Source: Clostridia bacterium (lineage in GTDB: Bacteria; Bacillota; Clostridia; UBA1381). Taken from it: a stretch of DNA of 64,000 nucleotides. Position 1 is the stretch's first letter; the number at the start of each line of letters is the position of its first letter. The stretch is from contig JAZQEC010000002.1 of the NCBI GenBank assembly GCA_045538755.1, positions 117,740 through 181,739 on the forward strand, written 5' to 3'. The notes under the pieces were generated by a model that was given only the letters and a program-made list of their open reading frames with translations, was not told the DNA's origin and did no database searches. Shown here piece by piece: positions 5,693 through 26,283 of the stretch. A program made the translations under genes and the position numbers.

Positions 5693-5705
5693 GGGGGACT
5701 GAAGT

Positions 5706-6849: not shown

Positions 6850-7000
6850 GACAGGACGGAAAACGACTCACAACTCAATCCTGGGCATTTTAAAGGGTAT
6901 CAGTACAAAATTTTACTTGCTTGCAACTTGACTTGTAGTGTGTACTTAAATGGCTTATGATAACCCTTGTAATTAATGACATAGCCGGGATTTATGATTA

Positions 7001-7046
7001 AAAAAATAACTGATGCATTATGAATTTTGCATCAGTTATTTTTTTT
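7001..7046 (+). terminator. Rho-independent terminator after the lysis cassette
   Basis: aaaaaataactgatgca / tgcatcagttat stem followed by T8. Confidence 0.6.
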
Positions 7047-7182
7047 GCTCATTTTTCGTGGTAAGCAACAATAAGCCTGCAGTTATAATTATACAGCATT
7101 TTGCCATCATGGATAAACTGACTAACTTTCTGACAAACTTTTTTATTTAAAATTTGCTAAAAAAGGCTAAAAGTAGAACATA

Positions 7183-7235
7183 TTAAAATAAATAAGATGG
7201 CATAAATACTATGTATTTAAGTATTTATGCCATCT
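7183..7235 (-). terminator. Hairpin terminator downstream of the orphan tRNA-Leu 3' half
   Basis: 16-bp stem agatggcataaatact / agtatttatgccatct, followed by a T-rich tract on the minus strand. Confidence 0.45.
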
Positions 7236-7242
7236 TTAAATA

Positions 7243-7293
7243 TGGTGCGGATGACAGGACTTGAACCTGCACATCGTAGACACTAGATCCTAA
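7243..7293 (-). pseudogene. Orphan 3' half of a tRNA-Leu gene (CCA end to anticodon loop), left junction of the island
   Basis: 51 nt aligned to the first 51 nt of the intact tRNA at 29401-29451 with 8 differences. The match stops after gatcctAA. Acceptor 3' strand is CATCCGC. Confidence 0.8.
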
Positions 7294-7347
7294 TGCTTGA
7301 TACACCTCGGTGAAGAAATAAAATTCTTCATCGGAGGTGTATTTTTT

Positions 7348-8133: not shown

Positions 8134-8534
8134 TACATCCGCAATCATAATCGCATAGATTGAGTTTGATTTTTGTGGTAAGGTAGTTACACCACCCTGA
8201 AAAGTTAATCTCTCGAACCGAAAAGATAAGCCCTATGTTAAGCCCTTAAAATCGATTTGAAAGAACAAACGAAGGTGCGAGAAATCACCTGACGGGGCGC
8301 CCCGAAACGGCGAGGTGTGGTGTTTTAAAAGAAGCAGGATAAAGCTTGGTGCGCTATTCGCCCCAAGCAGGCTTACATCGCCGTGCAAAGCCCGGCGGAG
8401 AGGTTCCCAAAGTGCATCTGCTGGTGATGGTTTGGTGCTGTAATGCGGATTTTCCGCACGGTTGAGCCTTGAAATTGGTGCATATACAGGTATTAATGGT
8501 ATTTAACGATATTTTGAGAAAGGTGAGTGTTATA

Positions 8535-11024: not shown

Positions 11025-12572
11025 ATGAGTGCAAATATAACTTTGGGGAAATCAAATTCCACTGTAATTAAAGGGTTTTTAAAAAAGGATGATGCAGAAT
11101 ACCCATTTTTATATACTAATGGAAAATTGGATGTATTTCCTCCTGACTCAAAATCGAAGACATCATTACAATCAGGTTTTTTTGAAGAAATTAATAAACC
11201 TTTCCAAAAGGGAAAAGTTATTCCTCAACTATTTATTGAAGGAGTTACATCTACAGGCCAGAAAATTATATTTGAAACATCAGAACATCATTCTAATAAT
11301 AATGGTTTTTTAACTTATAATATTGATTCAATATACTGCTATGATAAAACCAGTACAAAATACAAACCCAATAATACAGATGATAAAACAAGTATTTCAA
11401 AGCCTGAAGATATAAAATCAGATGCAGATAAAATTGTAAAAAGAATACATAATTGGGATATAGTAACTAATGAAATTGATGGAATGGTTATTTCGGGAGA
11501 ATCTATAGATTTATTTTTCAATCCAGGTTATGCTTTTCAACTTAATAACACATGGAATGAAAATGGTTCATTGGGAGCGTTGTCTATATCTGCTTTACCA
11601 CCTACTGAATATGATTGTGGCTCAATAGAATATGACGGAATAACACTTAATGTAAAGGTAAAAGCTGTTGCTACACAACATACATTTTCTGCGGAACCTT
11701 TTTCTAGTAAAAGTAGTATGATAATAAATTTTTCAAAACCAGTAAGTATTGCAATGGTAAAAGAAGTTAGATTGTCCATAGAACATGTATTGTCATTTCT
11801 CCAAAAAAGACAAAATATCGAATTAAATGAGACGGAGATCTTTTGCACAAATTGTGGATACAAAAGAATTTTCGGATCATTTGTTATTCAAAAAAATGCA
11901 ACTATCCAAGAAATTGATAATAAAAAGAAAAAAAGATTGATTGATTATACCATTATCAAAGATTGTTTTTCCAATCTAGTCTTATTGAGTTTGCAAAACA
12001 AATTGTATTACGAAAACATCCCGAAATGTACTGCTGACTGGAATGTTTACGGACCAGATAGAATCATTTTTAATTTTGCCGCTTTTGATCGTATTAGCGA
12101 ATTATATTATTCTGAGACGATGCGTTCTCAGGATTTTTATGATGTGAGATCTTTATTCTTTGAAATATCAAAAGAACTTCAAATAAAATTTGGAGGCAAA
12201 AAGAAAAAAGCAGCTAAAGAGATAGGAAAACGGATATTGGGATTGGAGAGTAGTTTACAAGATAGATTTGTTAAAATAATTAAAGAACACATTGGTTGTA
12301 TAGATGTGTTTATGGAACTAAACTATGGTAAAACATGGCGTACAAAAATACCATCGATTGGCTCCAGATTGAATACTATTCGCAATGATATTGCACATGG
12401 TCATATGGATTTGCATTACGATGATAATACGATATTAGATTTTGAAACTCTAGAGATATTATTATATGCAATTTGGTTAAGAAAGGCTGATCTTTGCGAT
12501 TATAACATAAAAATTGCAATTGAACAATTGTTTCATTTAGGGGTGCTTATAGAAGACAAAAACAACGAATAA
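11025..12572 (+). CDS. HEPN-motif protein, ApeA-like single-protein defence candidate
   Basis: C-terminal R-x4-H motif in SRLNTIRNDIAHGH. Large N-terminal domain of unknown function. Starts 17 nt after the Bro-N gene. Confidence 0.5.
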   Translation: MSANITLGKSNSTVIKGFLKKDDAEYPFLYTNGKLDVFPPDSKSKTSLQSGFFEEINKPFQKGKVIPQLFIEGVTSTGQKIIFETSEHHSNNNGFLTYNIDSIYCYDKTSTKYKPNNTDDKTSISKPEDIKSDADKIVKRIHNWDIVTNEIDGMVISGESIDLFFNPGYAFQLNNTWNENGSLGALSISALPPTEYDCGSIEYDGITLNVKVKAVATQHTFSAEPFSSKSSMIINFSKPVSIAMVKEVRLSIEHVLSFLQKRQNIELNETEIFCTNCGYKRIFGSFVIQKNATIQEIDNKKKKRLIDYTIIKDCFSNLVLLSLQNKLYYENIPKCTADWNVYGPDRIIFNFAAFDRISELYYSETMRSQDFYDVRSLFFEISKELQIKFGGKKKKAAKEIGKRILGLESSLQDRFVKIIKEHIGCIDVFMELNYGKTWRTKIPSIGSRLNTIRNDIAHGHMDLHYDDNTILDFETLEILLYAIWLRKADLCDYNIKIAIEQLFHLGVLIEDKNNE

Positions 12573-12902: not shown

Positions 12903-13748
12903 ATGAATGAAATTACTAAACGCACTATTGAAGACTACAAGAATTATTTAATCGAGGAAGAAAAAAGTTCCGTCACCATAGAAAAATATATTCGTGACAT
13001 AAATGCATTCGTGCAGTGGTCGGACGGCAGAGCAATGACAAAGATACTTGTGCTTGAATACAAAAACATATTAGTACAGCAATATGCTCCTGCAAGTGTG
13101 AATTCGGTTTTATCTTCTCTCAACGGATACTTTAATTACATTGAAAGATACGATCTGAGGGTCAAGAACTTAAAAGTGCAAAGACAAATCTTCTGTCAGA
13201 GTGAAAAGGAACTGACCAAAGCAGAATACGAAAGACTTCTCAAAGCTGCAAAGAATAAAAAGAATGAGCGCCTCTACCTCATTATGCAAACGATATGTGC
13301 CACAGGAATCCGTGTGAGTGAACTGAAATACATCGATGTAAATTCTGTTATGACAGGTCAGGCTCAGGTTAGGTTGAAAGGCAAAATTCGAATAATAATA
13401 CTTCCAAAGGAACTGTGCCAACTACTGAAAAAATATATAAAGGAAAGGCATATCACATCAGGCAGTGTATTCGTAACGAGAAAAGGTCAACCTGTGGACA
13501 GGCACTCAATATGGAAATCGATGAAACAGTTGTGCGAGACCGCCGGAGTGTCAAAAGAAAAAGTGTTCCCACATAACCTCCGCCACCTGTTCGCACGAAC
13601 CTACTATTCGCTACAAAAAGATATCGTTCGCCTGGCGGATATACTTGGTCACTCAAGCGTAAATACTACCAGAATCTATACCATAGAAAATGGTTCTACC
13701 CACCGCAGGCAAATGCAAAGAATGGGACTTGTACGGATGCAAAATTAA
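12903..13748 (+). CDS. Tyrosine site-specific recombinase (XerC/XerD-like)
   Basis: ATGIRVSEL (Arg), HNLRHLFARTY (H-x-x-R) and LGHSSVNTTRIYT (His and Tyr) catalytic motifs; N-terminal SAM-like domain. Confidence 0.85.
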   Translation: MNEITKRTIEDYKNYLIEEEKSSVTIEKYIRDINAFVQWSDGRAMTKILVLEYKNILVQQYAPASVNSVLSSLNGYFNYIERYDLRVKNLKVQRQIFCQSEKELTKAEYERLLKAAKNKKNERLYLIMQTICATGIRVSELKYIDVNSVMTGQAQVRLKGKIRIIILPKELCQLLKKYIKERHITSGSVFVTRKGQPVDRHSIWKSMKQLCETAGVSKEKVFPHNLRHLFARTYYSLQKDIVRLADILGHSSVNTTRIYTIENGSTHRRQMQRMGLVRMQN

Positions 13749-14003: not shown

Positions 14004-14027
14004 AGCTAATGGGAGTTGAGTAGAAAT

Positions 14028-14549
14028 ATGCCCGACATAGATAAAGAAAAATCTTGCTGCTTCTTCGGTCACAGAAAGATTACTGAAACAGAAGAATTAA
14101 AAAATAACCTATGCAGAATTATAGAAAATTTAATTGTAAATGAAAAAGTTGATACCTTCCTATTCGGGAGCAAAAGCGAATTTGACAGTTTGTGCCTTAA
14201 AACAGTAACCGAGTTGCGAGAAAAATATCCTCGCATCAAGCGGATATACGTCAGGTCAGCATTTCAACATATTCCCGACTGGTATGAGGATAGTCTGCTT
14301 AAACATTATGAAGGTACATACTTCCCTGAACATATGGAAAACGCAGGCAGAGCATCTTATGTGGAACGCAATCAGGAAATGATTAACCACAGTAAATTCT
14401 GCGTGGTTTATTACGATGAAAACTATCTTCCTCCAAGACGTAGAAACAGCAGACGGGATTTGTTTGACTACCAACCCAGAAGTGGCACAAAGCTTGCTTA
14501 TGAATATGCTGAAAGAAAAAACAGAAGTATTATTAATCTTTTGAGTTGA
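14028..14549 (+). CDS. SLOG-superfamily protein (DUF1273/YpsA-like)
   Basis: N-terminal CCFFGHRKI motif, then an alternating beta/alpha pattern and about 175 aa, typical of DUF1273. Confidence 0.5.
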   Translation: MPDIDKEKSCCFFGHRKITETEELKNNLCRIIENLIVNEKVDTFLFGSKSEFDSLCLKTVTELREKYPRIKRIYVRSAFQHIPDWYEDSLLKHYEGTYFPEHMENAGRASYVERNQEMINHSKFCVVYYDENYLPPRRRNSRRDLFDYQPRSGTKLAYEYAERKNRSIINLLS

Positions 14550-14668: not shown

Positions 14669-14723
14669 AATGTAAATTATGAATTCATTTAGTTGGTTAC
14701 TCTACGAAAAGAGGTTTGTAATA

Positions 14724-15269
14724 ATGGAAGAGATATCAAGATTTTTTCTAACTGAAGAAGAAAAGAATGAATTTATCGAAGCATTGACACCGGAATTAGC
14801 ACTGCTCCGGGCAAAAGCAGAAATATCACAAGAAGAAATAGCAAATTTAATAGGAGTTTCAAGACAAACGTATGGTTCGATAGAGAGAAAGGCGAGAAAA
14901 ATGTCATGGAATACTTACCTATCTCTTATTCTTTTTTATGATTATAATAAAAAAACGCACAAGATGATTCGAAACATCTCAGCTTTTCCGCATGAGTTAA
15001 TTAAACGTTTTAACGAAGGTGAAGAACCGGTTGACTTTGAGTTAAACATGTTATTTAAGGCGGATACAAAGAACATTATTGATTCGTTAGATGAACAGGC
15101 TATCTCCACACTAAAGACCATTTTAATGGTAGAATATTCTCGTTGTAATAATATTTCTGGTGAAGCGGTTGTTAAGTTCTTTGAGGGTGTTGATTTTACA
15201 AAGAGAGAAATTTCAGAAAAACAAGAAGATACAGCACAAGCATTAAAGAACATTAAAAGGAACAATTAG
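14724..15269 (+). CDS. XRE-family HTH transcriptional regulator
   Basis: ISQEEIANLIGVSRQTYGSIERKARKMSWNTYLSL HTH_3-type motif; AGAGG RBS before the ATG at 14724. Confidence 0.75.
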   Translation: MEEISRFFLTEEEKNEFIEALTPELALLRAKAEISQEEIANLIGVSRQTYGSIERKARKMSWNTYLSLILFYDYNKKTHKMIRNISAFPHELIKRFNEGEEPVDFELNMLFKADTKNIIDSLDEQAISTLKTILMVEYSRCNNISGEAVVKFFEGVDFTKREISEKQEDTAQALKNIKRNN

Positions 15270-15272
15270 AAT

Positions 15273-15950
15273 ATGAGCAAAGCTATTAAGAAAATTACAA
15301 ACCAATTTATAAAACAACATTCAATATCAGTTGTAAATTATTCTACTTTAAGAGACGTGGCAAAAAGAATTGGTTATACAATTATAGAATTCAATAACAT
15401 TTTTAATGATAAAGATGTTGAAACGGTTATACAGAATTTACGACTCAGTGAAGCGGTGTCTCAATCAAGAGGATTTACATATGTAAGTAAAGATTATCGC
15501 CTTATTTTTATAAATGAGGATTTAAGCGATGATGAAAAGACTTTGGTTCTCTCGCATGAACTTGGGCATATTGTTTGCGAACATTTTACAACCACTCCTA
15601 TCATAGGCAAGGATGTCAAAGAGGAATATGAAGCAAATGAATTTTCTCATTATTTATTAAATCAAAACTCTTTGCGTAATTTAAAACTTACGATTACAAA
15701 ACATAAAAAGAAAGTAGCAGTAGTTGCACTGTCTTTTGTTGCCATATTGGTTACGATTGTCACTGTTATCACTATTAATCAAGAACAATCGTATTACGAC
15801 AATTGTTATATCACATCGACAGGAAATAAATACCATAAAAAAGATTGTATTTTTGTCAAGGATAAAACAACTGTAAAACGGTTGACTAAAGAAGAATATG
15901 ATGCCGGCAAATATGAAGCGTGCGACATGTGCTTGCCTGACAAAGAATAA
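15273..15950 (+). CDS. ImmA/IrrE-family zinc metallopeptidase with a TM helix and a C-terminal His/Cys cluster
   Basis: HELGHIVCEH HEXXH motif. TM helix VAVVALSFVAILVTIVTVITI. C-terminal YHKKDC...CDMC. Starts 4 nt after the XRE stop, the classic ImmR/ImmA pairing. Confidence 0.7.
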   Translation: MSKAIKKITNQFIKQHSISVVNYSTLRDVAKRIGYTIIEFNNIFNDKDVETVIQNLRLSEAVSQSRGFTYVSKDYRLIFINEDLSDDEKTLVLSHELGHIVCEHFTTTPIIGKDVKEEYEANEFSHYLLNQNSLRNLKLTITKHKKKVAVVALSFVAILVTIVTVITINQEQSYYDNCYITSTGNKYHKKDCIFVKDKTTVKRLTKEEYDAGKYEACDMCLPDKE

Positions 15951-15982
15951 ACATCTGCATTATGAGGAGAAAGGAAATTATT

Positions 15983-16852
15983 ATGGATAACGAAAAGAAA
16001 GTTATGTCTGCAACAGAAAACATAGAAAGCTCGGAGAATGTAGTTTTAGAAACACCAAATGCAACAGAAGAATCATGTTCCGTTGAATCAAATAGTGAAG
16101 AAAGAAGATGCCCAAACTGTGAAGCACTGATTATTGAAGAGAAATCTTTCTGCACGGAATGTGGTACTTCACTAAAAAGTGCCTGCGCAAAGTGTGGTAC
16201 AGAGTTGCAACCTGGACAACTTTTCTGTCCAGAATGCGGTAACCAAATAACTGAAAGCAACTGCGATGGGAATATAGCACAATATAATAAAGAAATTGCT
16301 GATAAGCAGAGAAAGAAAGGTAAACACAAAAAACTTAAAATCGTTCTAAGTGTAATTTTAGCAGTTTTGGTCGTAGTCGGTGGTTATTTTGGTTATATCT
16401 ATCATTTGAGACAACAAGTTTTAGGATATGCAATAGAAACAGAAAAATATATTGAAGCTATAAATGATACCAAAAGCGATCTCTCGGCTGCTAACGAAGC
16501 CTGGAATATAGTAAACAACGGTGGTTCTTGGCTTTACTATGGAACATTAAAATCTTATGCTAGATCGATGTTTTCAACTAACATTTCAAATGCAAAAACT
16601 GCAAATTCAAAAATAGTAGACCTCTATAATGATATAAAAGAATTTGAAATGGATGATTCATATGTTGATGATATAAAAGCAAAAGCACAAGAAGTGCAAG
16701 ATGTTTATTTGAGCGTGTATGATTCTGTAATTGTCAACGAAAGCGGCTATAGCAGTTCGAGTCTTTCAAATTTATCTACTAAGATTTCAGAACTCCAAAA
16801 AATTGTAGAAAATGTTAAAGATGCGTATGGTAACGCAAATGTGAAAAAATAA
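15983..16852 (+). CDS. Double zinc-ribbon / single-pass TM protein with helical extracytoplasmic domain
   Basis: CPNC-x10-FCTECG and CAKCG-x9-FCPECG, Lys-rich stop-transfer KQRKKGKHKK, TM helix IVLSVILAVLVVVGGYFGYIY. Confidence 0.6.
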   Translation: MDNEKKVMSATENIESSENVVLETPNATEESCSVESNSEERRCPNCEALIIEEKSFCTECGTSLKSACAKCGTELQPGQLFCPECGNQITESNCDGNIAQYNKEIADKQRKKGKHKKLKIVLSVILAVLVVVGGYFGYIYHLRQQVLGYAIETEKYIEAINDTKSDLSAANEAWNIVNNGGSWLYYGTLKSYARSMFSTNISNAKTANSKIVDLYNDIKEFEMDDSYVDDIKAKAQEVQDVYLSVYDSVIVNESGYSSSSLSNLSTKISELQKIVENVKDAYGNANVKK

Positions 16853-16887: not shown

Positions 16888-17574
16888 ATGGAAAACGAAA
16901 ACAAAGTTATGCAGGAAGCAACAGTAACCGAAGCGGTTGAAAACGAAGCAAAGCAGCCTACAACAGAAAACAGATGCCCAAATTGTCAGGCTCTGCTTGG
17001 TGAAGGTCAAACCTTCTGTCCCGAGTGTGGAACTCCGCTTAAAAAACTTTGTCAGAAATGTGGTGCAGAACTGCAGAATGGACAGGTGTTTTGCGCAAAG
17101 TGTGGTCAAAAGACGGATGGAACCGTTGTGTTGGATGCTAGCCAAGCCATCAATCAGTTTAATACAAATATGGTAGCTCAACAAAAGAAAAACAAACTTA
17201 TTCCAGTTATTATTGGCGGAGTTTGCGTAGCTATTGCCATTCTACTTTTTGCTAGCGGAACAATCGGCGGTGGAGTGAATTTTGAAAAGAAATTTGCAGA
17301 TATAGCAGATGAATCATGGTGTGACATAGCATCTGATGGAAGTTATATGAAGTTAGATACAAATCCATATGATATTGAGGATAGCTTTGAAAGAGATGCA
17401 TGGAATGCAATTGAAGATACCAATGCAGAATTAGGCTTTTCAGAAGCGTTATTTAGTAAAATGGGTGAAACGCGGTCTATGGATGGAAGACAGTCAGACG
17501 AAAACGATAAATATAAAGTGACTTGGACATATCACCCGGATAAAGGTCTTGAAGTTATGTATGAGAAGAAATAA
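16888..17574 (+). CDS. Double zinc-ribbon / single-pass TM protein (paralog of the previous gene in its N-terminal module)
   Basis: CPNC-x10-FCPECG and CQKCG-x9-FCAKCG; TM helix LIPVIIGGVCVAIAILLFA. The N-terminus MENENKVMQ parallels MDNEKKVMS. Confidence 0.6.
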   Translation: MENENKVMQEATVTEAVENEAKQPTTENRCPNCQALLGEGQTFCPECGTPLKKLCQKCGAELQNGQVFCAKCGQKTDGTVVLDASQAINQFNTNMVAQQKKNKLIPVIIGGVCVAIAILLFASGTIGGGVNFEKKFADIADESWCDIASDGSYMKLDTNPYDIEDSFERDAWNAIEDTNAELGFSEALFSKMGETRSMDGRQSDENDKYKVTWTYHPDKGLEVMYEKK

Positions 17575-17608: not shown

Positions 17609-18214
17609 ATGGGAAAATTAAATGTAATTATTGTTGACGCAACAGGAAACAAGGAGCAAAAGGTTGGATTACCTGATGATGTAAAAATCGGTATCATTAT
17701 GGTTAAGCTTGTTGAAAAAATCAAATTGCCTTCAACAGGTCCTGATGGTAATCCTATCAGCTATAAATTCATACATAAAGTTTCCGGAAGACAGCTTTTG
17801 GAAACACAGACTTTAGCAGATGCTCATATCAAAGATGGAGATGTATTAAGGCTTCAACCCGAAATTACTGCAGGCGCAGTTTGCACAAAGTGCGGTAAAA
17901 CTATGCAAGATGGAGTTGCTTTTTGCACAGATTGCGGACAGCCGATGAATATTGTACAGCAACCAAATTTTGTTCAACCCAATTATGGAGTATATCAGGT
18001 TAACACAATCAACAAATCTACCCCTGTTAAGGTGTTGGGAATTATTTCGTCGGTAATACATTTTTTGGCGACATTTATATTTTTAATGGTAGCTTTCGAT
18101 TGTTATGATTTTGAATATGCAGCACCATATCTTATGTTTGCGTTTTTCTTTTGTGCCCAGGGGTTTTTAACTTTAGCAATGACTATTTATATGTCAAACA
18201 GAATTAAAAAGTAA
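17609..18214 (+). CDS. Ubiquitin-like beta-grasp domain fused to a zinc ribbon and two TM helices (tethered Ubl precursor)
   Basis: Residues 1-89 have a beta-grasp-like pattern ending GDVLRLQPEITAG (compare ubiquitin LVLRLRGG). Then CTKCG-x9-FCTDCG and two hydrophobic helices. Confidence 0.6.
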   Translation: MGKLNVIIVDATGNKEQKVGLPDDVKIGIIMVKLVEKIKLPSTGPDGNPISYKFIHKVSGRQLLETQTLADAHIKDGDVLRLQPEITAGAVCTKCGKTMQDGVAFCTDCGQPMNIVQQPNFVQPNYGVYQVNTINKSTPVKVLGIISSVIHFLATFIFLMVAFDCYDFEYAAPYLMFAFFFCAQGFLTLAMTIYMSNRIKK

Positions 18215-18224: not shown

Positions 18225-19412
18225 ATGTCGACGGAATTAGAATTAAATAAAGAGGATTTTGAAGAAACCAGATATTCACGATTAGAACTTATTCCCTGGT
18301 GGAATCAAGAACTTCTACACAATTCAACAGTAATGGTTGTAGGTGCCGGTGCCATCGGCAATGAACTTATCAAAAACCTTGCCTTGCTTGGTGTGGGCAA
18401 AATCGTTATTGTTGATATGGATAAGATTGAGCAAACAAACCTTACTCGTTCTATTCTTTATAGAATGAAAGATGTTGGCAAATATAAATCCCAGGCCGCA
18501 GCAGAAGCTGCTATGGAGATTAATCCTGATGTTAAAGCAATATGCCTCAATCAGAATATTGTTACAGATATTGGTCTTGGTGTATTTCGCAGTATGGATA
18601 TTGTTCTCGGTGGTCTTGATAACCGTGAAGCAAGACTTGCAATTAACCAGTCATGTTATAAGGTAAACAAGCCCTGGATTGATGGTGCTATTGAGGTTTT
18701 AAACGGTTTTGCTAGAGTGTTTGTTCCGCCCGGTCCGTGTTATGAATGCACAATGACCGAAACAGACTGGAAACTCATCAATAAACGTAAATCCTGTGCA
18801 CTTTTAACGCATGATGAGATGTTAGAAGGCAAAACGCCTACTACACCTACTTCATCATCAATTATTGCAGGTGTTCAGGTTCAAGAAATGCTGAAGATTT
18901 TGCACAATGACAGAAATCTTCCTACGCTTGCCGGCAAAGGGTATGTGTTCAATGGACTTACCCATGATTCTTTTGTCGTAGAGTACCAGCTTAAAGATGA
19001 TTGTATGAGCCATGATTTGTATGACAATATAAGGGAAATGGATTGGTCTGCTCGTGAAGTGTCTGTAAAAGATGTTTTAAATCAGGCAGCAAAAGACCTT
19101 GGTGATGGTGCAATCATTGAATTTGATCGTGATATTGCTACAACTGCAACCTGTGTTTGTGGAGATACAAAAGACATTTTCAATACTGTGAACCGTCTTC
19201 GTGGCAAAGATATTGTTTGCGAAAAATGTGGTAAATCTATGCAATTTGAAACTATACACACAATTAATGGTGAAGAAGATTTTCTTGATAAAAAATTATA
19301 TGAAATCGGTATACCTTTGTATCATATCATTGCAGTGAGGAAAGGTATGAAATATGTTTATTATGAATTATCAAAAGATAAAAACGAAGTGTTAGGAGGT
19401 CTGTTTGAATGA
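18225..19412 (+). CDS. E1-like adenylating enzyme (ThiF/MoeB/UBA family)
   Basis: VMVVGAGAIGNE Gly-loop, DxD at IVDMDKIEQTNLTRS, GGLDNREAR, and two Cys pairs (CYEC, and CVCG...CEKCG). Its stop overlaps the E2 start (ATGA). Confidence 0.8.
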   Translation: MSTELELNKEDFEETRYSRLELIPWWNQELLHNSTVMVVGAGAIGNELIKNLALLGVGKIVIVDMDKIEQTNLTRSILYRMKDVGKYKSQAAAEAAMEINPDVKAICLNQNIVTDIGLGVFRSMDIVLGGLDNREARLAINQSCYKVNKPWIDGAIEVLNGFARVFVPPGPCYECTMTETDWKLINKRKSCALLTHDEMLEGKTPTTPTSSSIIAGVQVQEMLKILHNDRNLPTLAGKGYVFNGLTHDSFVVEYQLKDDCMSHDLYDNIREMDWSAREVSVKDVLNQAAKDLGDGAIIEFDRDIATTATCVCGDTKDIFNTVNRLRGKDIVCEKCGKSMQFETIHTINGEEDFLDKKLYEIGIPLYHIIAVRKGMKYVYYELSKDKNEVLGGLFE

Positions 19413-21334
19413 ATGCAAGAATGAGGAGAATTGCCTCCGACTATGAACAGATTAAGAAGAATTTTTCGAATCATAAGAATATTGTAGTAGAACCAATTGG
19501 TGAAGAACCTGCCGAAAAGTACAGAGTTACATATTATGTAAATGGTATATACCTTTTAGAAGACGGCAGGATCGAAACTCTTGGTAAACACATCGTAATT
19601 ATTACATTACATGCTGAATATCCGAGATATAAGCCGATATGTACTATTGCTACACCTATCTGGCATCCTAATTTTAGAGATGGACAGATTTGTATAGGTG
19701 ATATCTGGGGAGCTGGAGAATCACTCTGCGATATTATTGTAAACATCGGTGATATGATTCAATATAAATCCTGGAACTCCTTTAGTCCTCTTTCTGCTGA
19801 TGCTGCCGAGTGGGCTATTGCAAACAAACACCTATTCCCTGTTGGTAATGTTAATTTGTGGACCGGCGAGGAAGAAGACGGCACAGTAAAAAAAGAGTTT
19901 GATATTGATCTTTTTGATGAAGATGAAGAAACATCATCAACTGAAACTATTCCGGAAGTGGTAGAATCCGCTCCTGTACAGGAAGAAATGCCGGTTGTTT
20001 CAGCAGAAACAACTGTTGAACAAGTTCCTGTAGCTACTGCTATATTGGAAAATGAAGATGAGAATGACTTTGAAATTACTGCTGAAGAATTAGAAGGAAT
20101 TGAATTTGTTCCGACTGCAGTAAGAATGCAAGGCAGCCAATATGGAGCAACTGCAAAAGGTGGCAAAGTTAACTTTAAAACTGTATTAGTCAAAGGCTTA
20201 TTATGGGCTTTAATAGGCGCATTTATTGGCTTTGGTGTTTCAGAAGTTTCTGATGGTTTAACTGGTAATGCCTCCGTTGCAAGAATGTTAGGACATCCTG
20301 AAATTGCTGAATATTATGAATATACAGAGCAAGCAAATGATGTTTTAGCCCCTGTAGATGCAGCATTTGAAAAATACTGCAAAGAACAAGGAATAGATCC
20401 TGAATCAGAAAACGCTTTAACAAATTGGTTGACGAACAATACTTCTAAGTATTCAAGTACTGTCGAAAAATATTTGGAATACAATGAAAAAGCCGAAAAT
20501 GCATTGTATGAAGCCTATGAAAATGATTTTAATTCTAACGAAGACAAACTTGGCGAAGCGATGGAAGGAATATCAAGAACTCATACTGCATTGTGGTCCG
20601 CATTAATCGCTTTATTCATCGGTCTTTTCCTTGGTCTTGGAGAAGGCATATACTATGGTTCAAAGGAAAATGCAATTAAATATGCTTTAATTGGTGCCGG
20701 TATATCAATAGTTGTTGGTGCTGTAAGCGGATATCTTGCACAGTGGATGTATGCTTCGATGTTGACCGATTATTCGTCTGACTTTACCAAAGCTCTCGTA
20801 AGAGGTTTGGGTTGGGCAATAATGGGTATTGGTATAGGCTTATCCGTAGGTCTTATCAAATCTGAACAAAAGAGAATAATTTTCTGTTCTCTCGGTGGTG
20901 TTATTGGTGCATTTATAGGAGGATTCCTATTTAACTATGTATGTGATATCATTCCAAATGACATTGTTGCACGCGGATTTGCAATAGTTATTATGGGCCT
21001 TTTGATCGGTGTTGGCGTAGGTGTACTTGAACAGTTTGCAAAAGCTGCTTGGCTCAAAGTTATAAGAGGTGAATTTGAAGGTAAAGAATATCTTGTATTT
21101 GAAGGTACAACAAGTATTGGTAATAGTGGAAAGAACACTATTGTATTGTTCAAAGATAAACTTGTTGCACCAAATCATTGCGATATTGTTCAAGAAGGTA
21201 GCAAATATGTCCTGGTAGATAAAGGCTCACCAATGGGTACTGTTGTTAATGGTATGCGTGTGACTCGCCATGTTTTAAAACAGGGTGATGCAGTTGCTAT
21301 CGGTAACTCTGTACTAGTATTTAACACGAAATAA
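19409..21334 (+). CDS. UBC-type E2 fused to about six Gly-rich TM helices and a C-terminal FHA domain
   Basis: YPRYKPICTIATPIWHPNFRDGQICIGDIW (H86-P87-N88, Cys95). Hydrophobic GxxxG-rich segments between about residues 258 and 545. C-terminal IGNSGKNTIVL...VVNGMRV...GDAVAIGNSVLVF is FHA-like. Confidence 0.75.
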   Translation: MNARMRRIASDYEQIKKNFSNHKNIVVEPIGEEPAEKYRVTYYVNGIYLLEDGRIETLGKHIVIITLHAEYPRYKPICTIATPIWHPNFRDGQICIGDIWGAGESLCDIIVNIGDMIQYKSWNSFSPLSADAAEWAIANKHLFPVGNVNLWTGEEEDGTVKKEFDIDLFDEDEETSSTETIPEVVESAPVQEEMPVVSAETTVEQVPVATAILENEDENDFEITAEELEGIEFVPTAVRMQGSQYGATAKGGKVNFKTVLVKGLLWALIGAFIGFGVSEVSDGLTGNASVARMLGHPEIAEYYEYTEQANDVLAPVDAAFEKYCKEQGIDPESENALTNWLTNNTSKYSSTVEKYLEYNEKAENALYEAYENDFNSNEDKLGEAMEGISRTHTALWSALIALFIGLFLGLGEGIYYGSKENAIKYALIGAGISIVVGAVSGYLAQWMYASMLTDYSSDFTKALVRGLGWAIMGIGIGLSVGLIKSEQKRIIFCSLGGVIGAFIGGFLFNYVCDIIPNDIVARGFAIVIMGLLIGVGVGVLEQFAKAAWLKVIRGEFEGKEYLVFEGTTSIGNSGKNTIVLFKDKLVAPNHCDIVQEGSKYVLVDKGSPMGTVVNGMRVTRHVLKQGDAVAIGNSVLVFNTK

Positions 21335-21345: not shown

Positions 21346-22200
21346 ATGAGTGGTATGAAATATAGAATTATCAGCATAGCGATTGTGTTCATACTGCTTA
21401 TCTCTTTTTCTGCATATGCAATTAACTTTACACCTGAAGAGACATATAATTCGGTGGTTGTTGTATATACAGATACAGGGGTTGGCAGTGGTTTTTCTAT
21501 TAAAGAAAATATAATAATAACAAACGCACATGTTGTGGGATACAGTAAAAAAGTTGCAGTTAATTTATACGATGGAACGACAATTAAAGGCAACGTTATA
21601 AAAACTGATATTGAAAAAGATTTGGCGTTGATTGAGGTTGATAAAACAATTACACCATTAAGTATAAATTCAAACAATTTAAGTATAGGTCAGGAAGTAT
21701 ATGCAATAGGCGCACCAAAAGATATGCCTTACACCATGACCAAAGGAATCATATCAGCACTTGACAGAAAACTTGGACAAAACACCTACATACAAATAGA
21801 TGCATCTGTAAATTCCGGAAACAGTGGCGGTCCGCTTGTTGATGACAATGGAAATGTGATTGGAATCATTACTCTAAAAGCATCTGATGCGGAAGGAATT
21901 GGCTTTGCAATTAACACAAAAGATATCAATAATTTTATTGAAGGTGTAGAAGTCCCTGAGCAACAAGTTTCTTCTGAAACCGAAAATGGAGAAAAAGATA
22001 TATTGCCAAACGAAAATAATGCTGAAACAAATGAAATGCAAAAGACTCTTATGGCAGAAAACGATGGATTAAAAATAGCACTGTGTATGTCTGTTATTTT
22101 TAATATTATATTAGGATTGTTATACCTTCACATATTGTTTAAAAAACGTTCCAAGAAAGAAAAAGACGAGTTTGATTTTGAAATTGAAATTGAGGAGTAG
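21346..22200 (+). CDS. Trypsin-like (S1/HtrA-type) serine protease, exported, with C-terminal TM anchor
   Basis: Signal-like MKYRIISIAIVFILLISFSAYA. Triad motifs TNAHVV, DLALIEV and GNSGGPLV. C-terminal helix LKIALCMSVIFNIILGLLYLHILF. The start may be the ATG at 21355. Confidence 0.8.
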   Translation: MSGMKYRIISIAIVFILLISFSAYAINFTPEETYNSVVVVYTDTGVGSGFSIKENIIITNAHVVGYSKKVAVNLYDGTTIKGNVIKTDIEKDLALIEVDKTITPLSINSNNLSIGQEVYAIGAPKDMPYTMTKGIISALDRKLGQNTYIQIDASVNSGNSGGPLVDDNGNVIGIITLKASDAEGIGFAINTKDINNFIEGVEVPEQQVSSETENGEKDILPNENNAETNEMQKTLMAENDGLKIALCMSVIFNIILGLLYLHILFKKRSKKEKDEFDFEIEIEE

Positions 22201-22205
22201 CGATT

Positions 22206-23177
22206 ATGAAGAAGAAAAAAACTAAGGCAAGGGTTTCTCATAAAAATATTACACCCGATTTGCCACAAAATATAGTTCCTGTAGGAGAAAGAGTTTTTGA
22301 TGATAAAAACATTTATATTCATCAAAAAGTTTATGCACAAATACATAAATTTGCTGCCAATAAAACAGAAAATGAGCATGGTGGAATCTTGGTTGGCAGA
22401 ATTCTAAATGAAATGGGTAAAGAAAATACAATTATAGAAGGCTTTATTGAAGCGAAATACAATGCAGCTACGCCTACTACTTTAACATTCACCCACGAAA
22501 CATGGGATTATTTCCATTCTGAAATGGATAGAAAGTATAAGGATAAAAAAATTGTGGGATGGATTCATACTCATCCTAATTTTGGAATATTCTTGTCTGA
22601 AAATGACCGATTTATACAACAAAATTTCTTCACTGATGCTAATCAGGTAGCCTATGTAGTCGATCCAATTCAAAATGATGAAGGCTTCTTCTTTTGGGTG
22701 AATGAAAAATTAGAACGTTGCCCTGGTTTTTACTTGTTTGATAAAAACGGAGTTAAAATAAAACAAAAGGCATGGTCAACTGATCCGGATGAACTTAATG
22801 AAGATGTAATTGTAAAACATAGTAAGATACATCCTATTCTTACAATTGCACTTGTTCTTGTTATACTTGTAAATCTTTTTGTGATAATGCAACAATCTAG
22901 GAGAATAGACACGCTTGAAAGGCAGGTTGAGGATCAGGAATTGGTACTTCGGTATGGTGTTCTTGGCATTTATGGTAATCCTGAAATATCGGATGTTGCT
23001 GATAATATAAGACAGCAAATAGAAGCACAGGAAAAATCTAAAAAACAAGCGATTCAGGATGCTATGAAACAACAAAAAGAACAACAAGCGACAGAGGCGA
23101 ACGAACAAGAACAAAAAGAAGAAAAAAATACTGAAGAAAATGAAACAAACACAGAGAATAACGGAGGTACAGAATAA
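22206..23177 (+). CDS. JAB/MPN (JAMM) metallopeptidase with TM helix and E/Q/K-rich tail
   Basis: ENEHGGILVG (Glu) and HTHPNFGIFLSEND (H-x-H-x7-S-x2-D); TM helix IHPILTIALVLVILVNLFVIM. Confidence 0.8.
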   Translation: MKKKKTKARVSHKNITPDLPQNIVPVGERVFDDKNIYIHQKVYAQIHKFAANKTENEHGGILVGRILNEMGKENTIIEGFIEAKYNAATPTTLTFTHETWDYFHSEMDRKYKDKKIVGWIHTHPNFGIFLSENDRFIQQNFFTDANQVAYVVDPIQNDEGFFFWVNEKLERCPGFYLFDKNGVKIKQKAWSTDPDELNEDVIVKHSKIHPILTIALVLVILVNLFVIMQQSRRIDTLERQVEDQELVLRYGVLGIYGNPEISDVADNIRQQIEAQEKSKKQAIQDAMKQQKEQQATEANEQEQKEEKNTEENETNTENNGGTE

Positions 23178-24022
23178 TGGATTTTATAGGTAAAATTTGT
23201 CCCTATTGCAAAACTGAATTTAAAGAAGGCGATGATGTCGTTGTATGTAGCGTTTGCGAAATGCCACATCACAAAGAATGTTGGATAGAAAATAAAGCAT
23301 GTACTACATTTGGATGCACAGGCACAATTGTTGGTGCAGAGCAATATGCAGAAGCTGTAGATAATAAGACATTCTGTTCTAAATGTGGAGCGCCTTTAAG
23401 TGAAGGGCAAAAATTCTGTGCTTCATGCGGAACACCAGCAGGAGCAACAGGTGAACCACATTTTCAGGTTGCTGGAGCATATGCGGCAAACCAAAGTTAT
23501 CAGCAAAATACATATACTGCGCCTCAGCCACAGTACACACCTCAATATTCTGCTCCGCAGTATAATGCTGGTTATAATCCTTATGGTCAACAACAGGTCG
23601 ATCAGGATTTATATACATTTATACAGTCTAATCAGCCATTCTATATATCAAAGTTCCAAAAAATGCAGATGAGTAACAGTAAAACATCATGGAATTGGTG
23701 TAGCTTTTTATTCAGTGCATATTGGTTGGCATATAGAAAAATGTATGGTATAGCAGCGGCATATGCCGGAATCTCCTTCGTATTAGGGTTGATTCCTGGT
23801 CTTGGTTCTATTTTAGGATTAGCAATGTCTATCTGTGCTGGTATATTTGGAAATCATTTTTATAAACAATATATAGACGGAGAATTACAGGTAGCTAAGA
23901 GTATGGATGCGATGAATAAAACCGCCTATATAGCCAAGAAAGGTGGAACAAGCGCAGGTGCAGTTTGGGTTGTTATAGGAATAATGACTGTTCTTGGAAT
24001 GATAATAGGCAGTAGCATGTAA
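23177..24022 (+). CDS. Prok-RING-like C4HC3 finger + zinc ribbon + Q/Y/P-rich linker + DUF2628-like TM domain (E3 candidate)
   Basis: C8-x2-C11-x12-C24-x2-C27-x4-H32-x2-C35-x6-C42-x4-C47 in ICPYCKTEFKEGDDVVVCSVCEMPHHKECWIENKACTTFGC. Then FCSKCG-x9-FCASCG, and WNWCSFLFSAYWLAYRKMY. Confidence 0.6.
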   Translation: MDFIGKICPYCKTEFKEGDDVVVCSVCEMPHHKECWIENKACTTFGCTGTIVGAEQYAEAVDNKTFCSKCGAPLSEGQKFCASCGTPAGATGEPHFQVAGAYAANQSYQQNTYTAPQPQYTPQYSAPQYNAGYNPYGQQQVDQDLYTFIQSNQPFYISKFQKMQMSNSKTSWNWCSFLFSAYWLAYRKMYGIAAAYAGISFVLGLIPGLGSILGLAMSICAGIFGNHFYKQYIDGELQVAKSMDAMNKTAYIAKKGGTSAGAVWVVIGIMTVLGMIIGSSM

Positions 24023-24033: not shown

Positions 24034-24996
24034 ATGGATGATACAAATATTGAAATTTTAGAAACCGAAAGTGTTGTTATCGAAAGTTCAGTAGTTGCAT
24101 TACCTATGAATTTTGTGTCTGTAGGAACTGTGGAACACGATAGTGTTCAGGTTTATATCAAACAAGATGTTTATAAACGAATAGAGAAATTCGCTAAAGA
24201 AGAAATGTCAAAAGAAGTTGGAAGTATTTTAATTGGCGACTATGTGGATGAAAAAGACAGAAAAACTATAATAATTTCAAATTACATTGAAGCAAAATAT
24301 ACCGATGCTTCTGCCTCTACTCTTACCTTTACACATGAAACATGGGATTATGTATATAGAGAAAAGGATAAAAAATATCCGGACAAAAAAATAGTTGGCT
24401 GGCAACACACTCACCCGGGATATGGAATTTTCCTATCAAATTATGATATTTTCATACAGGAAAATTTCTTTAACCTTCCTTGGCAGATTGCATATGTTGT
24501 AGATCCTATTGCAGATACAAGAGGATTTTTTGAGTGGAAAAATGATAAAGTTGCCAAAATGTCAGGCTTTTATGTTTATGATGAAATTGGCAGAGAAATA
24601 AAAATTTCAGAAAAAGCCAAGCCTGTTAAAAAACATTTTTCCATTACAACTATTATTTTGTCGTTCTTGCTACTTGTTTCGCTATTGGTTTCAGTTTCGT
24701 TTGGGATTGAGAAAAACAATGTTATGGATAGGCTCAACGAAGCACTTGCAACGATAAGCCAGCAATCCAACATTCAAATGGATGAAACACCAACGGTAGT
24801 AGAACAAGAACTGCCCGAAGATGTTGAAGCATTTAAGGTGTATGTAGTACAGGAAGGTGATTATCTAGAAAGTATATGCGAGCAATATGGTTTAGATTAC
24901 ATGAGCAATATACAGAAGATAATGAGAATCAATAGCATAACAGATGTAAATAAAATCTATGTAGGTCAAAAATTGTACTTGCCTATAAACGAATAA
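24034..24996 (+). CDS. JAB/MPN (JAMM) metallopeptidase with TM helix and C-terminal LysM
   Basis: SKEVGSILIG and HTHPGYGIFLSNYD JAMM motif. TM helix ITTIILSFLLLVSLLVSVSFGI. LysM: YVVQEGDYLESICEQYG...INSITDVNKIYVGQKLYLP. Confidence 0.8.
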   Translation: MDDTNIEILETESVVIESSVVALPMNFVSVGTVEHDSVQVYIKQDVYKRIEKFAKEEMSKEVGSILIGDYVDEKDRKTIIISNYIEAKYTDASASTLTFTHETWDYVYREKDKKYPDKKIVGWQHTHPGYGIFLSNYDIFIQENFFNLPWQIAYVVDPIADTRGFFEWKNDKVAKMSGFYVYDEIGREIKISEKAKPVKKHFSITTIILSFLLLVSLLVSVSFGIEKNNVMDRLNEALATISQQSNIQMDETPTVVEQELPEDVEAFKVYVVQEGDYLESICEQYGLDYMSNIQKIMRINSITDVNKIYVGQKLYLPINE

Positions 24997-25008: not shown

Positions 25009-26283
25009 ATGATAATATGCTCTCGTTGTAAAACAGAAAATGAAGACGATGTGAAATTTTGTAGAGAATGCGGAAACGATTTGATAACAAATGTTGATGC
25101 ACCGGCGAATGAGGATCTAAAAAGCTTGGCAGACTCATTAAATGAACAAGCAGTACATACAGAAAAACAACCATTTAATCTTAATAAAGCTATTTCTGAA
25201 GTGCCAAAAAAACTTTGGAGCGGAATAAAGAAATCTATATTTTTTAGAAAAAAGAAAAATACAATTATCACCTGTTCTTCTCTAGTAGTCATGATATTGT
25301 TGATAATTGGAGTTTTAAATAGCGGTTATATTGCGTTTACCATGGCATACAACATGGGTAAATACGATGCAGCAAAAAATATTCAAGGATGGTCGTTTAA
25401 TAGTAATGGTGTGAAATCTAATATAGAGAAATTTGTCATAAATAAAACTGAATCTTACTATGCTGATTTCTCTTCCGAGAAGATAACGTATGAGGAAGCT
25501 AATGAAAAGTTTGATATTGCGGAGGATTTCAGCAGCAACAAGGATGCAAAAAATAAGGCTGATAAATTACAAACTTCAAGAACATCTTATACAAAAGCAG
25601 AAGAATACGAGAAGAACGGCGATACCTTTAGTGCTGTATTGGAATATCTTAAAGTAATCGAAGAAGATAAAAACTATAATACAGCAAAAGAAAAAATAGA
25701 AAAGAATAAGCCAACTGTAAAACAACAAGCTATTTCACAAATGGATAACTGTGTTGCAGTAAATGATTTTAATACTGGTTTAAAAATTGTATCCGATATG
25801 GAAAAGATATTCTCTAACGATGCTGATATTAATAATTATAAAAAGGATTTTGAAGCACGTAAAGAAGCACATAGAATTCAGGAATTAAAAGATAATCAAA
25901 AAGTCAAAGTTACAAGCGTAAGATCATTTAACGATGGTTATTATATTGTTTTTAGAAAAGCCCAAGCAATATTGAAAAATTGCAGCAATAATGTTTTAAA
26001 AGAAGCAACAATTGTGTTCTTGTTGTTCGATAGTAACGGATATCCTGTAGATGCAGATTATTCGATGTACTCAGAAAGTGGAGTAGACAATAGTGAACGA
26101 TGTGGTACGGGAAGCATGAATCTACAACCTGGTGAATCTTGGGGGTACGGCAAGGCGATGGATATTCCGGATAATGCAACGCAAGTTAAAGCCTGTGTAA
26201 AATCTGCTGAATTTTATGATGGCGGTACATGGACGAATCCGTATTACGAACATTGGCTTAAAACTGAAAAAGACAGATATTAA
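25009..26283 (+). CDS. Zinc-ribbon / single-pass TM protein with large extracytoplasmic domain
   Basis: CSRCK-x9-FCRECG at the N-terminus, FFRKKKNT stop-transfer, TM helix SSLVVMILLIIGVLNSGYIAF, about 320-aa external region. Confidence 0.6.
   Translation: MIICSRCKTENEDDVKFCRECGNDLITNVDAPANEDLKSLADSLNEQAVHTEKQPFNLNKAISEVPKKLWSGIKKSIFFRKKKNTIITCSSLVVMILLIIGVLNSGYIAFTMAYNMGKYDAAKNIQGWSFNSNGVKSNIEKFVINKTESYYADFSSEKITYEEANEKFDIAEDFSSNKDAKNKADKLQTSRTSYTKAEEYEKNGDTFSAVLEYLKVIEEDKNYNTAKEKIEKNKPTVKQQAISQMDNCVAVNDFNTGLKIVSDMEKIFSNDADINNYKKDFEARKEAHRIQELKDNQKVKVTSVRSFNDGYYIVFRKAQAILKNCSNNVLKEATIVFLLFDSNGYPVDADYSMYSESGVDNSERCGTGSMNLQPGESWGYGKAMDIPDNATQVKACVKSAEFYDGGTWTNPYYEHWLKTEKDRY

Follow-up and report, generated by a model that had tools for sequence, protein, structure and literature searches.

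The 64,000-nucleotide stretch of Clostridia bacterium DNA analysed here (the window; GenBank assembly GCA_045538755.1, contig JAZQEC010000002.1, positions 117,740 to 181,739) carries on its forward strand, at 19409..21334, an ATG-start open reading frame (ORF) whose 641-residue product we call E2-6TM-FHA. From N to C terminus the protein comprises a ubiquitin-conjugating (UBC)-type E2 domain, an acidic disordered linker, six glycine-rich transmembrane (TM) helices with a predicted extracytoplasmic helical loop of about 110 residues, and a forkhead-associated (FHA) domain. Sequence comparisons suggest that it is probably the membrane-anchored E2 of a complete ubiquitin-like (Ubl) conjugation system borne by a mobile element, with the FHA domain likely serving as a phospho-independent docking module. 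That a UBC-type E2, a TM bundle and a degenerate FHA domain are genuinely united in one protein, inside a conjugation operon, we hold with high confidence. The original prediction, made from the letters of the window alone, had proposed this fusion, and both the ORF and every detail of it that could be checked were borne out. A survey across genomes, which it had suggested, found the architecture to be recurrent and hence not a product of chance.

The E2, membrane and FHA parts of the protein

Residues 68-100 (HAEYPRYKPICTIATPIWHPNFRDGQICIGDIW) include His86-Pro87-Asn88 and Cys95, and the series YP...P...HPN...G.IC that had been read there by eye as a UBC core is exact. A phmmer search of all Protein Data Bank (PDB) chains with the E2 domain returned E2 enzymes only (194 sequences at E <= 1), led by clam E2-C (2e2c, 6.8e-6), and in these alignments the HPN motif and Cys95 line up with the HPN motif and active-site cysteine of E2-C and of UBE2L3 (UbcH7). 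Among 79 homologues, Pro87 is invariant and His86, Asn88 and Cys95 are each retained in 78, within a block of about 40 almost invariant residues. Pfam assigns residues 61-143 to UQ_con (PF00179), for which close relatives score 31-45 bits. An AlphaFold2 (AF2) model of residues 1-165, of moderate confidence (pLDDT 65.7, pTM 0.61), places a helix, four strands, the HPN loop, a short strand bearing the cysteine and two helices in the order of the UBC fold. All of the top 50 Foldseek matches of this model in the PDB were E2s (Ubc13, UBE2G2, Ubc9, UbcH5, UbcH7 and others), at a probability of 1.0 and with TM-scores of 0.42-0.55, mostly 0.48-0.55; the doubt that the N-terminal domain might not model as a UBC fold was therefore not realised. 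Compared with eukaryotic UBC E2s, the fold, the YP..P and HPN elements and a catalytic cysteine at canonical spacing are shared, whereas the region past the cysteine is shorter here (ICIGDIW versus ICLDIL...W).

The linker that follows is acidic, as had been noted (29 Asp/Glu versus 7 Lys/Arg over residues 150-262), and its AF2 pLDDT of 24-44 fits a disordered segment. Hydropathy analysis then gives six hydrophobic segments (approximately 259-281, 391-413, 422-445, 462-484, 489-510 and 517-540), in agreement with the helices of the full-length AF2 model (256-280, 378-416, 419-451, 458-481, 487-514 and 518-554), so that the roughly six Gly/Ala/Ile-rich segments counted by eye correspond to six predicted TM helices. 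Confidence in that model is highest over the TM and loop region (block pLDDT 72-88). Its segments are rich in GxxxG-type spacings, and 22 glycines are invariant in an alignment of 31 sequences. Because the number of TM helices is even, the UBC and FHA domains would lie on the same side of the membrane, and because the E1 encoded in the same operon is soluble and needs ATP, that side would be the cytoplasm, an assignment to which the placement of Lys and Arg lends weak support. The loop between the first and second TM helices is modelled with helices at 297-327 and 336-373 (pLDDT ~80-88) and is the least conserved part of the protein, with a median pairwise identity of 25% versus 63% for TM helices 2-6. 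As modelled, this hypervariable loop would be exposed outside the cell and may be a surface sensing or contested region; a Foldseek search with the full-length model found no credible PDB structural match for the TM and extracellular loop module.

For the C-terminal domain, profile searches uphold the FHA assignment. The Pfam FHA model (PF00498) matches residues 568-632 at 47.2 bits (3.1e-12; gathering score 20.7), and Yop-YscD_cpl (PF16697) matches residues 550-639 at 47.8 bits (1.7e-12), the best Pfam E-value for this part of the protein. GarA (1.1e-9) and OdhI (2.9e-6) are among 18 PDB matches at E <= 0.01 found with phmmer, and Foldseek matches include the FHA domains of GarA, OdhI and Rv0020c. 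Residue equivalences were fixed by alignment to GarA and by a multiple alignment with Rad53 FHA1 and P0179, a relative in which an E2 is joined to a Cys-rich region, a canonical FHA domain and a Ser/Thr kinase. The FHA glycine (Gly571), the histidine of SxxH (His590) and the later Asn-Gly (Asn614-Gly615) are kept, whereas the three residues that normally contact phosphothreonine (pThr) are replaced: the arginine by Asn572, the serine of SxxH by Ala587 and the asparagine of SxNG by Met609, exactly the GN, APNH and MGT that had been picked out by eye.

These replacements extend through the family. Across the same 79 homologues, the arginine position is Asn in 74 and Arg in one, at the serine position there are 46 Gly, 24 Ala and seven Ser, and the asparagine position is Met in 65. 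The loops of the peptide-binding face are otherwise nearly invariant (TSIGN, FKDKLV, PxHC and GTxVNG), and the FHA domain as a whole is as conserved as the UBC domain (82% versus 83% median pairwise identity across loci), suggesting that its ligand, too, is conserved. No Hanks kinase was found in the window by phmmer with the kinase domain of P0179 or by an HRDxKxxN pattern search, so that the earlier statement that no kinase lies nearby holds; the same searches found one in a single locus among 80 related ones, on the opposite strand. P0179 keeps all three contacts (GR, SRRH and SxN), which indicates that their loss is specific to the E2-6TM-FHA clade. The domain is thus a genuine FHA fold but not a canonical pThr reader: selection still acts on its canonical face, which is no longer shaped to hold a phosphate. 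The family-wide loss of the contacts, together with the absence of a kinase from 79 of 80 loci, lends better support to phospho-independent binding, a possibility that the original prediction had raised, and we moderately favour the view that the FHA domain acts in this way on a partner internal to the system.

Phospho-independent FHA-like domains of this kind are known from YscD and PrgH of type III secretion systems (PF16697), which, like the domain studied here, lack the pThr triad and form a membrane-proximal cytoplasmic part of a TM protein. The present domain differs from them in scoring equally well on the generic FHA model and in not belonging to a secretion system.

The operon and its relatives

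The E2 gene is the third in a tightly packed same-strand operon, its start overlapped by the stop of the E1 gene (Table 1). A YukD-like Ubl, E1, E2, a Prok-RING protein and JAB proteins are all recognised by Pfam in consecutive same-strand genes, in an order that is conserved over about 80 loci, and TM segments occur in all components except the E1. The residues expected of an active pathway are retained in the partners as well (51-71 homologues each). In the E1, whose nearest solved relatives are the eukaryotic UBA1, UBA7, SAE2 and UBA6 (1.7e-30 to ~1e-22), ahead of ThiF, MccB and MoeB, the GxGxxG region is present, Cys194 is invariant in RKSCALLT, and there are zinc-type cysteine clusters at 175/178 and 313/315/335/338. 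The HxH..S..D motif is invariant in both JABs, as are the eight RING metal ligands, in C4HC3 order, in 57 homologues, and His62, Asp92 and Ser160 of the serine protease. A pathway of ThiS/MoaD sulfur-carrier type was rejected, given the E2, the RING protein, the two JABs and the eukaryotic affinities of the E1.

The Ubl is the most conserved product of the operon, about 90% identical over some 70 species; the median pairwise identities across loci are 90% for the Ubl, 72% for the E1, 64% for the E2, approximately 47% for the JABs, 42% for the protease and 33% for the RING protein. Residues 81-89 read RLQPEITAG in all 70 real homologues from related loci. What follows Gly89 varies: 15 sequences end exactly there, most add 1-6 unrelated residues, and about 16, including that of the window, have long zinc-ribbon or membrane-anchored tails. 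This has the look of the pattern seen in ubiquitin precursors, and the constant presence of Gly89 ahead of variable tails would make sense only if a peptidase exposes it for adenylation, for which the two JABs are the obvious candidates. The zinc-ribbon fusion in the window recalls the ubiquitin-ribosomal-protein fusions of eukaryotes.

Relatives of E2-6TM-FHA are numerous. A protein search gave at least 795 clusters at E <= 0.001; among the best 120 of these nearly all are full length (mostly 620-676 residues), and all but one truncated entry carry both UQ_con and FHA. A scan of one genome per species found at least 91 species with a relative, of which 80 loci were kept, nearly all spanning the full length at 52-87% identity. 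The hosts are almost all gut or rumen Clostridia (Oscillospiraceae, Acutalibacteraceae, Lachnospiraceae and Christensenellaceae), with Massiliimalia massiliensis, Clostridium weizhouense and Lachnospiraceae MC2017 among the cultured carriers; single metagenome-assembled genomes of Roseiflexaceae and Synergistaceae also carry the architecture. In loci with enough flanking sequence, the E2 is preceded by the E1 in 42 of 42 and by the Ubl in 41 of 42, and is followed by JAB2 in 45, JAB1 in 43, the RING protein in 43 and the protease in 39 of 51. Upstream of the operon, a helix-turn-helix (HTH) gene is present in 17 and an ImmA gene in 15 of the 42 loci, and most loci have variable genes for zinc-ribbon or RING TM proteins ahead of the Ubl. 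Two loci have unusual contents: L057 encodes two tandem E2-TM-FHA paralogues (582 and 572 residues) and has no E1 match between Ubl and E2, and in L078 the opposite strand encodes, downstream of the operon, a further E2-like ORF of 797 residues.

With the UBC domain as sole query, an exhaustive HMMER search widened this set to 1129 clusters at 50% identity, 593 of them below 1e-10. HPN is present in nearly all of the 150 matches listed, the exceptions being three short fragments. Within this superfamily the 6TM-FHA architecture forms one tight clade, and other members either stand alone or are fused to Ubl-like, Cys-rich, TPR, zinc-ribbon or FHA-kinase modules. Besides P0179, examples are P0154, an E2-FHA protein without TM segments in which the FHA arginine has also been lost, P0134, with a Ubl-like N terminus ahead of the E2, and P0141, with 31 CxxC repeats and a TM segment after it.

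Table 1. Positions in the window of the parts of E2-6TM-FHA, the operon and neighbouring genes.
Feature	Residues	Positions	Strand	Basis or remark
E2-6TM-FHA protein	641 aa	19409..21334	+	Pfam UQ_con and FHA; homologues across species genomes
UBC (E2) catalytic domain	1-150	19409..19858	+	Pfam, PDB phmmer, AF2, Foldseek
HPN motif, His86-Pro87-Asn88	86-88	19664..19672	+	Homologue conservation; alignment to clam E2-C and UbcH7
Cys95 codon, predicted thioester cysteine	95	19691..19693	+	Homologue conservation; alignment to active-site Cys of E2-C and UBE2L3
Acidic disordered linker	151-255	19859..20173	+	Composition, AF2 pLDDT
EFDIDL in E2 linker	163-168	19895-19912	+	Motif scan
NDFEITAEEL in E2 linker	219-228	20066-20083 (DFEITA)	+	Near-invariant variant
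TM helix 1	256-281	20174..20251	+	Hydropathy; AF2 helix 256-280
Predicted extracytoplasmic helical loop, hypervariable	282-390	20252..20578	+	AF2; pairwise identity
TM helices 2-6, glycine-zipper rich	391-545	20579..21043	+	Hydropathy; AF2; invariant glycines
FHA domain without canonical Arg/Ser/Asn pThr contacts	546-641	21044..21331	+	Pfam, phmmer, alignment, Foldseek
XRE-type HTH		14679-15269	+	Pfam HTH_31/HTH_3
M78/ImmA-IrrE-like metallopeptidase with TM helix		15273-15950	+	Pfam Peptidase_M78
Two zinc-ribbon, TM and extracytoplasmic-domain proteins, variable accessory		15962-16852, 16888-17574	+	Pfam DZR/Zn_Ribbon_1; TM segments
Ubl precursor: YukD-like beta-grasp, zinc ribbon, two TM	1-89 (beta-grasp, 17609-17875, ends ...ITAG)	17609..18214	+	Pfam YukD 5.6e-12, Zn_Ribbon_1
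E1, ThiF-type adenylating enzyme	398 aa	18216..19412	+	Pfam ThiF 7.5e-55
Trypsin/HtrA-like serine protease: N-terminal signal anchor, C-terminal TM, cytoplasmic DFEIEIEE tail		21346..22200	+	Pfam Trypsin_2 1.3e-29
Acidic motif in protease tail		22174-22191	+	Motif scan
JAB/MPN metalloprotease 1 with one TM, predicted Ubl-processing/deconjugating		22206..23177	+	Pfam JAB 2e-9
Prok-RING_1 (C4HC3), zinc ribbon and DUF2628 TM, predicted E3		23177..24022	+	Pfam Prok-RING_1 2.5e-14
JAB/MPN metalloprotease 2 with TM and extracellular LysM		24034..24996	+	Pfam JAB 6.2e-10, LysM 7.4e-10
Zinc ribbon, TM and DUF5780, accessory		25009..26283	+	Pfam; in 5 related loci only
Four co-directional genes		8-4854		Sipho_Gp37 tail-protein match at 2775-3740; other three without Pfam or PADLOC match
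CHAP and PG_binding lysin		5968-6849		
DnaD-like HTH gene		7297-8133		
MobL relaxase		8469-9656		
Bro-N protein		10078-11007		Matches PADLOC phage-defence candidate PDC-S13 at 4.7e-133
Tyrosine recombinase		12903-13748		
SLOG protein		14016-14549		

Proposed docking and conjugation, and alternative explanations

A short acidic motif, newly recognised here, is shared by several products of these operons. In its strict form, [DE]F[DET][ILV][DET][ILVF] (typically DFEIEI or DFDIDI), it occupies the last residues of the cytoplasmic tail in 56 of 64 proteases and the extreme N terminus in 28 of 58 JAB2 proteins (in related loci such as L010, L011, L033 and L076), and it occurs in 11 of 83 E2 linkers and 4 of 88 RING proteins, as compared with none of the 853 other ORFs of at least 150 residues in the same loci. 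The E2 linker of the window contains a strict copy and, further on, a near-invariant variant whose DFx[ILV] core is found in 74 of 77 E2 homologues. From its distribution, the shared motif is probably a docking motif for a common receptor, either the FHA domain or the Ubl. The FHA domain is a candidate, since some FHA domains prefer pT-x-x-I/L, to which D-x-x-I is similar, and since the loops of the one studied here bear invariant lysines. The Ubl is another candidate by analogy, as the motif resembles the SUMO-interacting motifs that add a beta-strand to their partner. Peptides that may bind the FHA domain are KDEFDFEIEIEE, NDFEITAEELEGIEF and the N terminus of JAB2, and Ubl(1-89), the E1 and the RING protein may also be its partners. 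A relaxed form of the motif is not confined to FHA-bearing systems (see below), and we therefore make no claim that its receptor is the FHA domain.

Every step of the pathway that we propose is a deduction from the domain identities, the catalytic residues, the topology, the conservation of the operon, the C-terminal pattern of the Ubl and the loss of the pThr contacts. A JAB peptidase would trim the Ubl precursor after Gly89, in the window removing a zinc-ribbon and TM tail. The soluble E1 would adenylate Gly89, take the Ubl as a thioester on Cys194 and hand it to Cys95 of the cytoplasmic UBC domain, where HPN would supply the oxyanion-hole asparagine. The membrane RING protein (C4HC3), as E3, would direct the Ubl to lysines in proteins on the membrane's inner face, and the JABs could reverse the modification. 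The FHA domain would dock a conserved partner internal to the system, either the Ubl itself or the acidic DFxIxI motifs. A bolder scheme, rather unlikely as a whole, is that the FHA domain has been repurposed to read the unphosphorylated, system-specific D-F-x-I-x-I, with Asp at the pThr position, Ile at +3 and the invariant loop lysines Lys575, Lys582 and Lys584 providing complementary charge. Through the motif or through the Ubl, the E2 would then gather the protease tail, JAB2 and its own linker into one membrane machine, a bacterial counterpart of ubiquitination of the endoplasmic-reticulum-associated degradation (ERAD) or MARCH type, while the outer loop and the zinc-ribbon/TM partners would sense envelope events such as phage attack.

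Several observations weigh against parts of this interpretation. The UQ_con match is borderline, its 27.5 bits barely exceeding the gathering score of 27. Confidence in both AF2 models is modest (pLDDT 62-66), and it is poor for the FHA part (pLDDT 30-64). In place of Gly-Gly, the Ubl has Ala-Gly at its end, and the operon contains no gene for an AAA+ unfoldase or a proteasome. A relaxed form of the acidic motif is also found in the tails of the closest E2s that lack an FHA domain (9 of 149, versus 2.25 expected from shuffling), which weakens the pairing of FHA and motif and favours the Ubl or the E1 as receptor. PADLOC has no model that matches the E2, Ubl or RING protein. A tblastn search of a phage collection gave no match, a plasmid collection gave remote single-domain matches only, none of full length, and a scan of IMG/VR gave one remote E2; an origin in a phage or plasmid was rejected on these results. 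With no PADLOC match for the E2 and none of these full-length systems in phage or plasmid collections, the case for a role in defence rests on context.

Other explanations were considered for the FHA domain and for the system as a whole. Were the FHA domain still to read phosphothreonine, the E2 could be recruited to substrates or components phosphorylated by a Hanks kinase from elsewhere on the chromosome, such as an envelope kinase of the PASTA type, and phosphorylation would be coupled to Ubl tagging. The fold and its signature positions Gly571, His590 and Asn614-Gly615 are indeed kept, the serine survives in the seven homologues noted above, and P0179 demonstrates that E2, FHA and an active-looking Ser/Thr kinase are linked within the same superfamily. 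However, the arginine and asparagine are replaced in the great majority of homologues and the serine is Gly or Ala in 70 of 79, the kinase-fused relative is the one that keeps all three contacts, and kinases are missing from the window and from all but one of the related loci; we therefore consider continued pThr reading improbable. Slightly less credible to us is the proposal that the glycine-zipper TM bundle is itself the effector, a pore or lesion switched on or off by Ubl auto-modification in the manner of abortive infection, with the E2 and FHA domains as regulators. The 22 invariant glycines in GxxxG-type runs over six helices, the TM module without a structural match in the PDB, the setting in mobile or defence-island DNA and the frequency of TM effectors among defence systems are all in keeping with it. 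However, ordinary helix bundles show GxxxG packing just as typically, and many other TM proteins of the operon could be substrates or effectors.

The most improbable of the alternatives, in our estimation, dispenses with conjugation: the YukD-like protein would only help a membrane complex to assemble, through non-covalent contacts, as in type VIIb secretion (T7SSb), and the E1- and E2-like proteins would be scaffolds. Conjugation of YukD is not known from T7SSb, where it gives FHA domains non-covalent stabilisation (PMC12637312), and nearly all components here are membrane proteins. Such a role is difficult to reconcile with the invariance, over 51-79 homologues, of the nucleotide-binding and Cys residues of the E1, HPN and Cys95 of the E2, the RING ligands and both JAB metal sites, or with a Ubl that always presents Gly89 ahead of removable variable tails, which fits only C-terminal activation; moreover, genes for an FtsK-like ATPase or WXG100 proteins were not seen in the operon. 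A complete conjugation system with a phospho-independent FHA domain thus remains the reading that we prefer.

Relation to known systems and possible role

An operon class comprising a YukD-like Ubl, E1, HPN-type E2, TM-RING and JAB was reportedly predicted by computation by Burroughs, Iyer and Aravind in 2011. The operon of the window belongs to this class, with a C-terminal Gly of the Ubl that is exposed or could be exposed, and it has the same component set as the predicted prokaryotic E1-E2-RING-JAB 'tri-ligase' systems. The original prediction held that the fusion resembles no described bacterial system. Searches of the accessible literature found no experimental study of an E2-6TM-FHA system; the claim of novelty must be qualified in that the family is widespread and conserved and falls within the class named above, and the fusion itself may have been described before. 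Related complete Ubl-conjugation operons with RING-type E3s, and Ubl-E2 fusions that P0134 parallels, have been described in a later paper of the same group (eLife 2020, PMC7159879).

Bil, type II cyclic oligonucleotide-based antiphage signalling systems (CBASS; Cap2/Cap3) and Bub, the bacterial Ubl pathways that have been characterised by experiment, share with this operon an E1, an E2-type enzyme, a Ubl or target C terminus, a JAB or other peptidase, and mobile or defence contexts. The present operon differs from all three in its RING E3, serine protease, FHA domain and the membrane anchoring of nearly every part. PADLOC models for CBASS E1-E2, BilD and JAB match the E1 and JABs weakly, the BilD match of the E1 (3e-8) ranking below its CBASS E1-E2 matches. 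Assignment to Bil (BilABCD) was rejected, as neither the E2 nor the Ubl has a PADLOC match, a BilA-type Ubl is absent and the E1 is only a weak match to BilD. Type II CBASS was rejected because E1 and E2 are separate genes and no CD-NTase is found among the operon proteins; the sole PADLOC 'Cyclase' match, at 15.6 bits (E 0.0018), falls on the DUF5780 protein. Bub was likewise rejected, since no PADLOC model matches the E2, Ubl or RING protein. Bub is reported to use oxyester (Ser) chemistry (PMC11601596), whereas a cysteine is conserved here.

Components of the Caldiarchaeum subterraneum system are soluble, with a ubiquitin-type Ubl and no known FHA domain or serine protease. Its operon likewise encodes a Ubl, E1, E2, RING E3 and JAB-type protease, and its E1/E2/small-RING cascade has been reconstituted in vitro, indicating that such prokaryotic cascades can be active (Nat Commun 2017, PMC5654768). 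In T7SSb, as here, a YukD-family beta-grasp protein and an FHA domain occur in one membrane machine: in the structure of its core determined by cryo-electron microscopy, YukD is bound non-covalently to the FHA domains of YukB/EssC, which act as protein-protein interaction modules for YukD and the pseudokinase YukC (Sci Adv 2025, PMC12637312). Direct binding of the FHA domain to the Ubl is thus an alternative backed by precedent. T7SSb differs, however, in having no E1, E2, RING or JAB, and the FHA domain studied here is nearest in sequence to the GarA/OdhI type, with no EssC structure among its PDB matches at the threshold given above. Assignment to T7SSb itself was rejected, as neither an FtsK-like EssC/YukB ATPase nor WXG100 or YukC appears among the Pfam matches of the operon or recurs in related loci.

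Eukaryotic membrane-anchored E2s of the Ubc6/UBE2J type work with the TM RING-CH E3s Doa10 and MARCH, and the present E2 is likewise tethered to a membrane and paired with a TM C4HC3 RING protein. Here the proteins are bacterial, six TM helices and an FHA domain take the place of a single tail anchor, and the Ubl is YukD-like and ends in Ala-Gly. By analogy, the predicted functions most resemble this eukaryotic membrane ubiquitination module, with its tethered E2, TM C4HC3 RING E3 and JAB deubiquitinases.

The operon sits in a mosaic of mobile DNA. To its left (8-9656) the window appears from its gene content to be prophage and mobilisable-element DNA, followed by the Bro-N, recombinase and SLOG genes. 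The Bro-N gene is adjoined by one for a 515-residue protein (11025-12572), without a Pfam or PADLOC match, that may be its partner. On the other side lie a DUF6076 gene and then housekeeping genes (arginine synthesis, FtsW), among which a zinc-ribbon protein with a C-terminal YARHG domain (38433-39509, reverse strand) has the N-terminal zinc-ribbon design of the operon's accessory proteins. The HTH and M78/ImmA genes at 14679..15950 are likely a regulator pair; CBASS is switched on by HTH/metallopeptidase pairs of the CapH/CapP type, which are found with other defence operons too, ubiquitin-related ones among them (bioRxiv 10.1101/2022.04.27.489752). The M78/ImmA-like protein has a TM helix (residues ~148-166) and a C-terminal Cys/His-rich segment, unlike the soluble ImmA, IrrE and CapP. 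A conflict or defence role, or one in envelope-linked signalling or sensing, seems the likeliest, and would fit the mobile context, the hypervariable loop, the fast-evolving RING and zinc-ribbon partners and the LysM and extracytoplasmic protease domains; for defence or conflict in the narrower sense our belief is tentative and falls short of even.

Work on CBASS Cap2, Bil and Bub has lately made the conjugation of Ubls in bacteria an active field, and to our knowledge every characterised system of this kind is soluble and lacks a RING E3. What sets the E2-6TM-FHA family apart is that an E1, an E2 with HPN and Cys, a RING E3 and JABs are all present and that the apparatus lies in the membrane. 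The conservation of its Ubl nearly equals that of ubiquitin, the Ubl precursors carry tails or fused domains, and the family is common in gut and rumen Clostridia, where it rides on mobile elements. The DFxIxI motif and the exact processing site at Gly89 offer immediate experimental handles on questions that the family opens: RING-dependent ubiquitination before eukaryotes, the role of a membrane-tethered E2 in bacteria, and the function of an FHA domain without phosphate recognition. If the system truly serves in defence or in envelope sensing, it would represent a new mechanistic class.

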